Shown here one piece after another: positions 35,709-42,628 of a stretch of DNA of 64,000 nt (positions within the stretch are counted from its first letter, which is position 1; every line of letters starts with the position of its first letter). The notes under the pieces are model-generated. The model did no database searches and was not told where the DNA came from. It was given only the letters and a program-made list of their open reading frames with translations. Both the position numbers and the translations under genes were made by a program. The DNA comes from a virus: positions 17,265-81,264 of IMG/VR virus record IMGVR_UViG_3300032011_003203. One strand, 5' to 3'.

Positions 35709-38342
35709 ATGTCCAATTATTTAAAATCTTTGGTTCTATTATTGGTACTTTCCCTATCGTGGGCACAAGAGCCGATAATCCGAATCAAACAAACAGGCGA
35801 ATATAATTTACCAAAAACTTGGTGGAGAGAATCGGAAACTTTCCAACTACAAACATACCTTGCAGATGATAAAGATAATCCTGCATTGTATAACAATAAC
35901 TTTGATGCATTTAGAGATAGTGTGATGACAATGGAAGTTACACTTGATGATAATGGTGCAGATATAACAGCATTTAGATTAGATATAGTTTTTGACAATG
36001 ATTTAATTGATTGGGACCACGATGATACAGAAGTATTAAAGGGTTCTCACTTATCAAGTGCAACAGAGGGAGATTCAACTGCAGGAGCAGATTACTCATA
36101 TGAAGTTGTACACTATTCTAATGTAGGATATATTGATTCACTTCAAACTGCAGATGGTGAAATATCTGAAAACAATAATAGATATGATTGGTTAAGAATC
36201 ACTATGGTATCACACAATGGAAATACTTTTGAATTTGGTGGTGGTGATGGTGTACAAAAACAATTAATAAAATTAAATTTTAAAATAGAAGATGTAGTAG
36301 ATAATTTTTCACCACAATCGTTTAGAGTTCCAACATTATACAATGGTGGTTTTGGGTACTACACATACGCTTCAGATGATTATCTTTTAGATTACAAGGT
36401 TTACATCGATGGTAATTGGGGAACGGAAGAAACTGATGATGGTGGTGCTCGTGGAGATATCACACTACATCCAAAACTTTTAGATGTTGAGGGATTCTTT
36501 AGATACGCACAAAGAAATGGTACTAATGATGATAGAACTTATCCTTATTGGAAAGTTGTATTTGAACTTGACCAAAGTAATCCAGGTAGTGTTTCTAATT
36601 GGTATAACATTGAGGATATAGATGATGAGACAAGTAATACTGATGAAACCACTACTGATGATGTTATCGGTGATGGAACATCTACATTTTGGTTTGATGA
36701 CCAAGGAACTACTGCAGCACAAACTTTACCAGGTGAGGGTTTCTTAGGAATTAGTTATTATGATTCTACATTTGTTGATGATAGAGGATATTTTAATATT
36801 CAATTACCAAGAAATAATTACTATCGTGTATCGTTTTATCCACCAGATGCAGATGATGATATAGGTACACATACACAATACGAACTTGATAGATATGCAA
36901 TTACAAATATTAATGATGCTATTGCTGCATTTAATTTTCAAAGTAACAAATGGAAATCAGTAACAGGTGTTGATACTTTAGATGCAGTTGAATATTTTAT
37001 TGGTGATGTTGATGGTGATGATGTATTTCAATTAAATGATGCTTATTTCTTATGGGCATATACTTCAGGTATATTTGAAAACTATACACACTTAAATGGA
37101 AACTCATATGAGAATTGGAGTACGATTGATACATTAAAAGAAAATGGTAATCCATTTCCATATGAATGGTATGAAGATTTAGGAGCACAGAAATACGAAT
37201 TTACAGTCTTTGAGGATGATGATTTTGACCAATCCGAAGAATTAAATTTTGGAGTAATAGAAGTTACTAATCCATTGATGAATACAATTCAGACTGGGTT
37301 AGATACTTTGGGTGTAACATTAGGTGCAGGTAACTCTACATATGGTAGTGATGCTAATCCAGATTTAACTTTACCTGATTGGGGATATTTCTTTACAGGA
37401 GATATTAATAATACTGGTACTAAAGTACAAGAACCAGGTAATGATGCAGATGGGTATATAGATGTAAATGGAACAACATTCTATCGTTGGGGTAACGGAA
37501 GTGCACCAGGTACTTGGGCAAATAAAATTGCTACTCAAACTCCAGATGTATTTTTCTCAATGCCAGCAGATTCAACTGTCAGAGTACAAAGTGGTGACCA
37601 AATAGAAGTACCATTTTATATTACACCAGACCAATTAAAAAATATTGATGTTGCTGGATTTGAGTTCGAGGTGTTATTCAATACCAATCAGTTAACATTT
37701 ATTGATATGAAAACAGATGTTCTTCCAGGCCCGTGGTTTACTTATGTAAATGTACACGAACCTGATGATATAGGGTATCAGAAAGTATCGTTTGGTGGTA
37801 TGGATTATTCACCAGGTAATGCACCACAACAATATTGGATTAATGAACCTATGATTGCATTGAATATGATTTTCCAAGCAGATTTTCCTGATTCAGAGTG
37901 GACTGAAGCAGATGTACAATTTGTTGGTAAAGGTGTAGCTGGTAATCCAAGTGGTCAAGATTTATTAGTAAATAAACAAGATGGTAAAATATTAGTATGG
38001 AATAAGTATTGGGCATTCGGTGGTGGAGAACCAGATGATGATGAGATAACTTATAACTATCCTAATCCATTTAATGAAACTACAAAGTTCCAATTTTATG
38101 TAGATGAGTTAACTGATGTTAAAATCTACATCTTAAATTCAATGGGACAGTATATTGGTAAATTATTAGATGAACCAGTTTCACAAGGTATTCATACATT
38201 TGATTTTAGTAACACACCAGGTGCGTGGTTACCAGAAGAAAGTGTTTATCAAGAGCATAAAGTATTAGAACCAGGTGTTTATATATTTGTTCTTGAAACA
38301 GATAAGAGAATTAAAGCTAACAAATTCACGGTCGTGAAGTAG
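35709..38342 (+). CDS. Secreted acidic protein with two cohesin-like domains, a dockerin/EF-hand-like motif and a T9SS-type C-terminal sorting domain
   Basis: Sec signal peptide; ITAFRLDIVFD and VAGFEFEVLFN cohesin-like strands; GDVDGDDVFQLND; NYPNPFN...PGVYIFVL...KFTVVK C-terminal domain. Confidence 0.78.
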   Translation: MSNYLKSLVLLLVLSLSWAQEPIIRIKQTGEYNLPKTWWRESETFQLQTYLADDKDNPALYNNNFDAFRDSVMTMEVTLDDNGADITAFRLDIVFDNDLIDWDHDDTEVLKGSHLSSATEGDSTAGADYSYEVVHYSNVGYIDSLQTADGEISENNNRYDWLRITMVSHNGNTFEFGGGDGVQKQLIKLNFKIEDVVDNFSPQSFRVPTLYNGGFGYYTYASDDYLLDYKVYIDGNWGTEETDDGGARGDITLHPKLLDVEGFFRYAQRNGTNDDRTYPYWKVVFELDQSNPGSVSNWYNIEDIDDETSNTDETTTDDVIGDGTSTFWFDDQGTTAAQTLPGEGFLGISYYDSTFVDDRGYFNIQLPRNNYYRVSFYPPDADDDIGTHTQYELDRYAITNINDAIAAFNFQSNKWKSVTGVDTLDAVEYFIGDVDGDDVFQLNDAYFLWAYTSGIFENYTHLNGNSYENWSTIDTLKENGNPFPYEWYEDLGAQKYEFTVFEDDDFDQSEELNFGVIEVTNPLMNTIQTGLDTLGVTLGAGNSTYGSDANPDLTLPDWGYFFTGDINNTGTKVQEPGNDADGYIDVNGTTFYRWGNGSAPGTWANKIATQTPDVFFSMPADSTVRVQSGDQIEVPFYITPDQLKNIDVAGFEFEVLFNTNQLTFIDMKTDVLPGPWFTYVNVHEPDDIGYQKVSFGGMDYSPGNAPQQYWINEPMIALNMIFQADFPDSEWTEADVQFVGKGVAGNPSGQDLLVNKQDGKILVWNKYWAFGGGEPDDDEITYNYPNPFNETTKFQFYVDELTDVKIYILNSMGQYIGKLLDEPVSQGIHTFDFSNTPGAWLPEESVYQEHKVLEPGVYIFVLETDKRIKANKFTVVK

Positions 38343-38348
38343 GAAAAG

Positions 38349-41372: not shown

Positions 41373-41894
41373 ATGAAAAAATTCTTAATTGGATTTTTAT
41401 TAATTAGTGGTTTAATGAGTCAAGGTTTACCAGAACCATCAATAGTTGGTGAGGGTAATCTGAAGAGACCTACTTTGAGAATATCAGAGTTTGTAAGTGT
41501 TTCTGATAAAGTAGTAGTTGAGGATGAAAGAATAACATTCGGTATTCGTCAATTATTACAAGAATCATTTTCAGATACACGATATATTTTAACTGATGAT
41601 AATAATGCAGATTTTGTAGCATCAGTAGAGGTAGTGTATCTTGGTAAACCTAATGAGGCATTTAGTATTGTAGGATTATTTAATCGTAGAAGTACTAAAA
41701 CAGAAGTTAGGTTAATGGTAAATATGGAAAACACCAAATCAGGTAATATTAAATCATCAAGGGGTGAGGGTGAAATTTCAACAACAATTACAGCTACAGG
41801 ATTACAAATCTCTGATGATGTACCATTCAACAAAACAGAGTTGGGTGGAGCAGTTAGAAAAGCTATTGATGATGCAATTTCCACACTCGAATAA
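41373..41894 (+). CDS. Secreted CsgG-like protein (distant paralogue of 39719-40360)
   Basis: AGGAG RBS, signal peptide; ITFGIRQ, EVRLMV..KSG..SRGEG, GGAVRKAI parallel the upstream lipoprotein. Confidence 0.5.
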   Translation: MKKFLIGFLLISGLMSQGLPEPSIVGEGNLKRPTLRISEFVSVSDKVVVEDERITFGIRQLLQESFSDTRYILTDDNNADFVASVEVVYLGKPNEAFSIVGLFNRRSTKTEVRLMVNMENTKSGNIKSSRGEGEISTTITATGLQISDDVPFNKTELGGAVRKAIDDAISTLE

Positions 41895-42628
41895 TGATTA
41901 GAAAAGATACGATTCTTGGTGTTGTAATAAACATCTTGATTGTACTTGCTGTTGTGGGTACACGATATTATTACGCCAAACAAGAAATGGATTTTCTAAC
42001 CAAAGATTCAGATAGACAGGAAGAATTAATAACTGTCAACAAAGTTGAGATAGATACTTTAAATCAGGAGGTTGAGTATTTGAGGGAATTATCAAATGAC
42101 CAACATAATGAACTTCAAGATTTACAAGTAAAATATTACGAACAAGTAAAATGGAATACCGAGTACAATCAGAAAATTAAAAATTTGAAAGATGACCTCG
42201 ATAGTCTTGGAATAGAATTGGGATTAGCATATATGAATACAATTCCATTTCAGTTTGAGTTCGGTTCACAAGATGCTTATATGAAAGTGTTTGGTGGAAT
42301 GGGATATAAATTACAGAATAACGCAATAGTAGATTCAGAAACTAATGTTGGGTTTGATGGTAGATTACAATTTGGTGCACCTTTGGTTGACCAAGTTGGT
42401 AAACACGAATACCTTGTGTATAACGATGATAGAATTTGGGAATCAGGTGGTAATAGTGTTTATATGAGTGGTGGTGATGGACAACGAATAAAAGTTAAAC
42501 CACCAAGAAACCAAATTAGTGTTGGACCATTTGTTGGAGTTCAATACGATAAGAGTACTGGATTAACAGAACCCGTAATTGGGTTCGGTGTAACTTATAA
42601 TGCACTAAAAATATGGGATTGGAAATAA
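41894..42628 (+). CDS. Membrane-anchored coiled-coil protein with C-terminal beta-hairpin (possibly spanin-like)
   Basis: N-terminal TM helix, coiled coil, SVGPFVGVQY...IGFGVTYN. Confidence 0.5.
   Translation: MIRKDTILGVVINILIVLAVVGTRYYYAKQEMDFLTKDSDRQEELITVNKVEIDTLNQEVEYLRELSNDQHNELQDLQVKYYEQVKWNTEYNQKIKNLKDDLDSLGIELGLAYMNTIPFQFEFGSQDAYMKVFGGMGYKLQNNAIVDSETNVGFDGRLQFGAPLVDQVGKHEYLVYNDDRIWESGGNSVYMSGGDGQRIKVKPPRNQISVGPFVGVQYDKSTGLTEPVIGFGVTYNALKIWDWK

Follow-up and report, generated by a model that had tools for sequence, protein, structure and literature searches.

A marine phage cassette encoding a T9SS-type cargo, a PorV/PorQ-family barrel and CsgG-fold proteins

Described systems and the marine cassette

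Flavobacteria rank as main degraders of carbon from algal blooms, and the proteins on their surface, many of them delivered by a type IX secretion system (T9SS), govern adhesion, gliding and phage adsorption. A possible phage intervention in this layer is suggested by a gene cassette at positions 35709-42628 (plus strand) of a 64,000-nucleotide stretch from a large uncultured marine phage, positions 17,265-81,264 of the IMG/VR record IMGVR_UViG_3300032011_003203; by ‘the window’ we mean this whole stretch. The cassette comprises eight co-oriented open reading frames (ORFs) with short gaps or overlaps between them. Seven encode exported or membrane proteins, here called A to G in their order, and the eighth is a cysteine-rich micropeptide between B and C. 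A first-pass annotation, made from the letters alone, had proposed such an eight-gene block made up of a T9SS-type cargo, a PorV-like barrel, the micropeptide, two CsgG-like proteins, a second barrel and two coiled-coil proteins; all of the ORFs are present on the plus strand, and each component is of the kind that was named.

What described systems come closest to this arrangement? In Porphyromonas gingivalis the sub-complexes PorU:PorV and PorQ:PorZ and the binding of PorV to cargo are established (PMC5562754), and PorV is found in the SprA translocon of Flavobacterium johnsoniae (6h3i, 8gl6). The cassette has in common with these T9SS carrier and anchor pairs that a protein with a C-terminal sorting domain (CTD) is encoded beside a PorV/PorQ-family barrel; it differs in that the barrel is phage-encoded, has 289 amino acids, fails the curated equivalog models and forms its own clade, and in that neither PorU nor PorZ is seen in the phage fragment. 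The metagenomic ‘Cryophage’ has genes ending in type A T9SS sorting domains, for which a hijack of the host system was proposed (Bellas et al. 2020, PMC7468147). The cassette likewise has a phage-encoded cargo of type A, whereas the cargoes of Cryophage are enzymes and a PA14 protein, and the passages of that report drawn on here mention no phage PorV-type barrel, CsgG-like protein or barrel (PMC7468147). Genes for CsgG and CsgF, of unknown function, occur in pelagimyophages of the HTVC008M group and in the Methylophilales phage Melnitz (PMC9004378). These are marine T4-like phages with a CsgG-fold outer-membrane lipoprotein and no curli subunits, as in the present case (PMC9004378); here, however, the CsgG-like proteins D and F are shorter, have no direct Pfam CsgG match and no accompanying CsgF, occur together with a probable barrel and a T9SS cargo, and belong to a phage of another host phylum. 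The first-pass statement that no characterised phage system resembles this one was too strong, given the published phage T9SS cargo (PMC7468147) and phage CsgG/CsgF (PMC9004378). Our literature search found no description of a phage PorV-family gene or of this cassette.

The nearest relative in culture is Flavobacterium phage vB_FspM_immuto (NC_055915), the only match in a tblastn search of cultured phages with D (31% identity). Its genes gp013-gp019 are annotated only as lectin, cohesin and hypothetical proteins. The product of gp015 combines cohesin with a strong T9SS sorting domain (46.5 bits); behind it come a small membrane protein and then gp017-gp019, the homologues of D, E and F, so that cargo, small membrane protein, D/E/F homologues and their order are common to both phages. 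Immuto differs in having no PorV-like gene and no G, in a cargo split between gp014 and gp015, in an additional exported C-type lectin ahead of the cargo (gp013, Pfam 3e-15) and in the setting of the block, whose neighbours are replication genes and whose distance from the baseplate gene is about 68 kb. A scan of viral contigs with gp017 returned 117 relatives, and the 80 loci examined keep the core block except at contig ends: a cohesin-type T9SS cargo, a CsgG-like protein, a barrel and a paralogue. In these loci gp014 and gp015 are often fused into an A-like protein, and the immuto clade as a whole is without B and G. The presence of the core cassette in cultured immuto makes a laboratory test with its Flavobacterium host feasible.

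Among related marine viral loci the order A-B-C-D-E-F-G is kept in 37 of 37, up to the contig ends, with D identity falling as low as 72%; this is the synteny in related phage contigs that the first-pass annotation had named as a check. Median identity to the window is 77% for D, 74% for C, 63% for E, 58% for A, 55% for F, 50% for B and 42% for G, which makes C one of the two best-conserved cassette proteins and G the fastest-evolving. All cassette genes remain intact ORFs down to 37-72% identity. At least 14 DNA sequencing runs, of which two are viromes, contain 0.9 or more of the sampled words of the stretch; they come from at least 11 studies, and virome contigs cover all of its bins. The tetranucleotide GATC is absent from the window, where shuffled sequences lead one to expect about 167 occurrences, and this absence fits DNA modification or restriction avoidance. 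The claim that the cassette obeys the same palindrome avoidance as its surroundings is thereby borne out, and the view of it as long resident in the phage agrees with the syntenic loci, the DNA runs and the missing GATC alike; chimeric assembly and recent host contamination are excluded.

We hypothesize that with this cassette the phage encodes a module for remodelling the envelope of infected Bacteroidota cells, a reading that we hold to be evenly poised between right and wrong. If the cassette does rewrite the surface of infected cells, it would represent a widespread and unstudied layer of phage–host interaction, given the hundreds of phage contigs, marine and freshwater, in which it is conserved.

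The cargo, its neighbouring barrel and the export signals

Protein A (35709-38342, plus strand) is a secreted cargo of 877 amino acids: a signal peptide is followed by modules resembling cohesin and dockerin, and a type A T9SS sorting domain closes the C-terminus. Its N-terminus reads MSNYLKSLVLLLVLSLSWA up to the predicted cleavage site and QEP after it, with a hydrophobic core at residues 5-19 and a conserved Gln20 at position +1. The sorting domain occupies residues 784-875 of 877 (38058-38333, plus strand) and scores 25.6 bits on TIGR04183 against a cut-off of 23 (29.3 bits in a six-frame search), in keeping with the first-pass proposal of a T9SS-type domain on this cargo. Because the corresponding Pfam family PF18962 (Por_Secre_tail) stays below threshold (17.7, cut-off 27), the match in this copy must be called borderline. 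Among 13 full-length homologues of the A family, Por_Secre_tail is recognized in 12 (best 1.7e-11), Cohesin in 11 (best 1.4e-12) and Dockerin_1 in four, and a profile of the family matches cohesin and dockerin chains (4.5e-4 to 1e-3) as well as T9SS CTD chains in the PDB, where a phmmer search with A itself found no match. A is homologous from end to end with proteins of about 635 amino acids in related phages, and its residues 624-873 align to the cohesin and CTD protein gp015 of immuto. The cohesin-like module, at approximately residues 624-760 (37578-37988, plus strand), is a family-level assignment only, and A is better described as a homologue of cohesin-bearing proteins than as a direct cohesin match. 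The A family shares its cohesin- and dockerin-type modules with the scaffoldins of cellulosomes; it differs from them in the weakness of the matches in the window's A, in presumed delivery by T9SS rather than anchoring by sortase or surface-layer homology (SLH) domains, and in that no enzyme partners are seen. The sorting domain of the marine clade carries an insertion of about 15 amino acids that is absent in the immuto clade, and the clade with this insertion is the clade with B.

Protein B (38349-39218, plus strand; 289 amino acids) is an outer-membrane barrel of the PorV/PorQ family, with a signal peptide and Gln at +1. Members of this family are expected to form a barrel of the FadL type with 14 strands and to bind a CTD. 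It scores 100.7 bits on NF033709 (PorV_fam), above the cut-off of 90, and covers positions 7-325 of the 326 in that profile; its relatives in the loci L006 and L008 reach 69.9 and 59.7 bits in six-frame searches, under the cut-off. The sole PDB match of the B family profile is PorV of F. johnsoniae (E 9.7e-8), and phmmer with B alone gave none in that database. In a phylogenetic tree, for which host proteins had been classified with the curated models before inclusion, the phage B proteins form their own clade (support 100/98), placed on the PorV side of the PorQ/PorV split (100/100) and outside the PorV clade (100/100). Judged by this phylogeny, B is a third lineage, neither PorV nor PorQ. 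Of the PorV-like shuttle envisaged in the first-pass annotation, the family membership stands and the orthology to PorV does not. A shuttling role would be argued by analogy, and the same analogy makes a fixed anchor of the PorQ type equally possible.

Where could such a gene have come from? The B profile matches host PorV/PorQ in 266 of 301 sampled Bacteroidia genomes (one of them, G101, unpublished), all at 48 bits or less, and the D family is rare in cells, with six weak matches in the same sample (best 44 bits). No recent host donor was found there for either B or D, a search of genome contigs with the B alignment did not find a close cellular relative, and tblastn of B against the phage collection returned no match. 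To our knowledge, B would be the first PorV-family protein known outside cells. One Bacteroidia genome carries an ‘orphan’ PorV/PorQ-family paralogue (L238/L285, 7162-8238) that, like phage B, fails both the PorV and the PorQ equivalogs; its gene is flanked by two unannotated proteins, each longer than 1300 amino acids, in which a Pfam scan found no sorting domain.

Export signals run through nearly the whole cassette, as had been noticed from the letters alone. N-terminal signal peptides are present in A, B, E and F, a lipobox (LYGC) in D and single membrane anchors in C (around residues 24-45) and G (around residues 4-25), and no export signal was found in the flanking genes u1-u3, d1, d3 and d4. 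Among distinct N-termini of the marine relatives, the predicted cut is followed by Gln in 22 of 25 for A, 24 of 24 for B, 25 of 25 for E and 23 of 24 for F, and the lipobox Cys of D is kept in 20 of 20. This Q-rule is reported to be specific to Bacteroidetes and not to extend to the whole Fibrobacteres–Chlorobi–Bacteroidetes (FCB) group (PMC5837995), and it has also been observed in proteins of P. gingivalis phages (PMC10367356). The host is likely to be a member of Bacteroidota with a T9SS, because immuto infects Flavobacterium, the cassette contains a sorting domain and a PorV-family protein, and Gln stands at +1; the taxonomic range of the families points the same way. It is probably a marine flavobacterium.

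CsgG-fold proteins, their partners and the proposed mechanism

Protein D (39719-40360, plus strand) is a lipoprotein of 213 amino acids with a fold of the CsgG/PelC/LptE type, as indicated by its lipobox, its AlphaFold2 model and its family alignment. The Pfam CsgG family (PF03783) matches neither D nor F at E <= 1; in an alignment of 41 D-family sequences, CsgG is recognized in 15 (best 1.9e-17) and LpoB in six, D itself being among neither. The model of D, with a mean predicted local distance difference test (pLDDT) value of 85.7, has CsgG as its closest structure (Z 13.2, root-mean-square deviation 3.0 Å over 168 residues, VIA-align), followed by LptE, PelC, FlgT and TraT (Z 7.8-10.6). Foldseek gives PelC at 8e-7 and CsgG at 5e-6, and the ESM Atlas likewise points from D to CsgG. 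Family profiles and modelling together make CsgG a remote relative of the D family. Protein F (41373-41894, plus strand; 173 amino acids) is exported and paralogous to D, its signal peptide being followed by Gln at +1; the two families align in hhalign with a probability of 96.7% (E 4.4e-10), and BLASTP links F to both gp019 and gp017 of immuto. D has a lipobox, which F and gp017 lack. The two CsgG-like proteins of the first-pass annotation are confirmed as regards the fold of D and the paralogy of F; for a channel they would at most be candidates. Pfam and NCBIfam scans of the cassette found no match to CsgE, CsgF, CsgA or CsgB.

Protein E (40370-41362, plus strand; 330 amino acids) begins with a signal peptide and an N-terminal domain, which a linker joins to a beta-rich C-terminal half; it is likely an outer-membrane barrel. 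The N-terminal domain is conserved and contains an invariant DPC...PC cysteine pair in the family alignment; the linker, short here, can reach about 300 residues of low complexity in relatives; the C-terminal half measures about 210 amino acids and ends in ...GTYF, an aromatic end being the rule in the family. Foldseek returns generic outer-membrane barrels with weak scores (best a porin, E 8e-3), and in the ESM Atlas the named clusters closest to E belong to barrel families (score 0.90). E has no match among Pfam or NCBIfam families, and profile searches of the PDB with E and G gave low-complexity or coiled-coil noise only. The earlier description of E as a barrel ending in Phe agrees with the terminal motif and the predominance of strands, less so with the weak model described below and the lack of a known family. 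The cassette resembles the pairs PelC-PelB and LptE-LptD, as well as the surface-exclusion decamer of TraT, in that the model of D matches this lipoprotein fold and the gene of a probable barrel adjoins D; unlike in the two pairs, no sequence related to PelB or LptD is present. Among D-like fusion proteins, some 510-535 amino acids long, none contained an E-like portion. In two loci (L244 and L245) E and F are only 88% identical to the window, whereas A, B, C, D and G are 96-100% identical, which suggests that the E-F pair was swapped as a unit by recombination.

Two further proteins would tie these components to the inner membrane. Protein C (39295-39705, plus strand) is a single-anchor membrane protein of 136 amino acids with a C-terminal coiled coil and only weak matches of the coiled-coil type. 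Protein G (41894-42628, plus strand) has 244 amino acids, with an N-terminal anchor ahead of a coiled coil and a C-terminal domain that is conserved and rich in beta structure, and its matches too are of the coiled-coil type; a PADLOC scan likewise gave only coiled-coil noise. The layout of G is that of an i-spanin, which raises the possibility of an apparatus for lysis or egress, with G and perhaps C as spanin-like components and D, E and F as their outer-membrane partner or as a pore timing lysis. Weak matches of G to LysB/Rz (E 4e-4) and to a PHROG of Rz-like proteins (0.0019) would fit such an apparatus, as would the lipoprotein nature of D and the timing role speculated for phage CsgG (PMC9004378). 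We nevertheless rate a lysis function as very improbable: coiled coils match non-specifically, and G reaches 20.6 bits on LysB (TIGR03495) against a cut-off of 92.75; a small o-spanin or lipobox ORF was not found inside or beside G; the cassette has neither endolysin nor holin; immuto is without G and has its endolysin about 6 kb from the block; and a T9SS cargo with a PorV-type barrel does not belong in a lysis cassette. An endolysin of the immuto type was not found in the 81-kb fragment, itself estimated at 46% of the genome.

The micropeptide ORF (39220-39279, plus strand) encodes 19 amino acids, nine of them Cys, and unlike its neighbours has no signal peptide. Counterparts of 19-20 amino acids with 9-10 Cys lie between B and C in L006 (10872-10934) and L008 (10885-10947), and the spacing of the cysteines is kept in three diverged lineages despite nucleotide changes. 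L008, a diverged relative, has extra exported genes after G (14321-16552). Their products are a protein of 425 amino acids and a thioredoxin-like one, both with signal peptides, and a paralogue of C (E 1.2e-7), so that the accessory members of the cassette vary.

How might these proteins remodel the envelope? We suppose that Sec would export A, B, D, E and F, that cleavage of A, B, E and F by signal peptidase I would expose Gln at +1, and that D would be lipidated. The host T9SS would then move the scaffoldin-like A across the outer membrane by means of its sorting domain, and B would bind that domain and either pass A on or retain it at the surface, after the manner of PorV-PorU or PorQ-PorZ. 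D and F, on the periplasmic face of the outer membrane, might join E, the probable barrel, in a second complex of the kind seen in PelC-PelB and LptE-LptD, and C and G would link this assembly to the inner membrane. The infected cell would thereby gain a new layer of protein, whose likeliest benefit is blocked adsorption of further phages or altered adhesion. Display of A, and the purposes named in the first-pass annotation, among them superinfection exclusion, receptor masking and aggregation, are conjectural. A more specific form of the proposal, put forward only tentatively, sees in B a private carrier of the PorV class matched to the altered sorting domain, acting together with a CsgG-fold and barrel complex tied to the inner membrane so as to coat the infected cell with a cohesin scaffold. 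If true, this would be an undescribed viral route to seize a bacterial secretion system and to re-surface the host, and the cassette would offer a natural minimal pair of cargo and carrier for studies of sorting-domain recognition.

A number of observations weigh against envelope remodelling by these means. B reaches 53.1 bits on the PorV equivalog NF033710 (cut-off 250; 422-517 bits for PorV of hosts) and 71 bits on the PorQ equivalog NF033711 (cut-off 220), and with its 289 amino acids it is much shorter than host PorV/PorQ (345-422 amino acids). B is not essential to the core, because the immuto clade has none. Distance correlations of the mirror-tree type lie between 0.4 and 0.9 for all cassette parts and do not single out the pair of B and the sorting domain. 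The window's A is below the Pfam thresholds for Cohesin (PF00963), Dockerin (PF00404) and Por_Secre_tail. D falls about 50-65 amino acids short of the length of CsgG and its long hairpin ends in a polar tip, so that a nonameric 36-strand pore built from two membrane-spanning hairpins, as in CsgG, is at most putative for it, and the model of E, with 12-13 predicted strands, is unreliable (pLDDT 44). RNA-library contigs from at least two studies, which we count in favour of the module, span most of the genes at an identity of at least 99%, but they may stem from DNA carry-over. The linkage of the genes, finally, could reflect common descent and not common function.

Is the cassette a single module at all? 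It might instead join two unrelated neighbours, a T9SS display pair of A and B and a separate CsgG-like outer-membrane complex of C to G that serves as a pore for uptake, efflux or timing. Such a division would accommodate the immuto clade, which keeps D, E and F though without B and G, the marine myophages of unrelated hosts that have CsgG/CsgF without curli subunits (PMC9004378), and the exchange of E-F as a unit between contigs otherwise 96-100% identical. Yet a cargo with cohesin and CTD directly precedes D, E and F in both deeply diverged clades, at every locus that covers the junction, and there is no evident substrate for a separate pore; we consider two independent modules rather unlikely. 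The mechanism could also be as we propose and its purpose another, namely adhesion or nutrient capture on algal polysaccharide particles or other cells, with no exclusion of competing phages. Cohesin and dockerin modules are parts for assembly and adhesion, and lectin-type proteins accompany the cassette in the 80 examined immuto-type loci, immuto itself encoding the exported C-type lectin gp013. In the window's cassette, however, Pfam detects no lectin domain, and a purely adhesive purpose seems to us distinctly unlikely.

Genomic setting of the cassette

The IMG/VR record is 81 kb long, with a CheckV completeness estimate of 46%. The window has a G+C content of about 32%, in line with that of the cassette, and all of its large ORFs lie on the plus strand. 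The cassette had been placed between virion and replication genes, and the neighbours agree with this. Upstream lies a T4-type baseplate wedge gene (PHROG matches of about 1e-18 to 5e-19), whose product is 41% identical to the annotated baseplate wedge protein of immuto, along with genes for a 1678-amino-acid protein and three proteins without assignment; downstream are genes for a ferredoxin, a PAP2 phosphatase, a PDDEXK nuclease, a primase-like protein and an SbcCD-like fusion.

A promoter-like AT-rich 17-mer, ATATATTATATTTATTA, stands upstream of the cassette (35600-35616, plus strand) and recurs at 4313-4329, both copies continuing as CCCGCG..GGTTAACAT. Its core, TATATTTAT, sits 95 nucleotides before A. 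With eight copies in total against 5.2 expected, the core is not over-represented overall, though its plus-strand copies are all intergenic (six of six) in a window of which intergenic DNA makes up 8%. The phage promoter motif of the first-pass annotation is thus present and biased towards intergenic DNA, and a promoter function for it is something we can only infer. A scan with the sigma-70 consensus found sites to be rarer than in shuffled sequence.

Baseplate and tail genes immediately precede the cassette in the marine clade, and the promoter-like motif is common to the cassette and to genes upstream. Might its products be parts of the virion, such as tail fibres or decoration proteins, and the sorting-domain-like region merely an Ig-like fold? 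Five of the products have a cleavable signal peptide or lipobox and two are anchored, as against none encoded by the neighbouring genes presumed to be structural; two products are members of outer-membrane barrel families or look like them; and in immuto the block is about 68 kb from the baseplate gene. We therefore see hardly any likelihood of a virion role.

Several features of the surroundings deserve mention in their own right. Just before the cassette (33565-35592) lie genes for two proteins of about 335 amino acids that resemble paralogues, both kept in L008; they share an N-terminal GSG...L...F and a C-terminal VGLYND.NELL.V.KL.KP and match no family. Just after G, one RNA-library contig (run X17) has 38 unrelated letters in place of the 373 nucleotides at 42627-42999 that span the ferredoxin gene, which looks like a strain variant without that ORF. 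The region 43436-44439 encodes the PAP2-family phosphatase, in which neither a signal peptide nor a membrane segment was detected, and a 131-amino-acid HExxH protein with a weak match to metallopeptidase toxins; roles in envelope lipids or peptidoglycan are possible for these products. Farther downstream, a single ORF of 4329 amino acids extends over 49732-62721.

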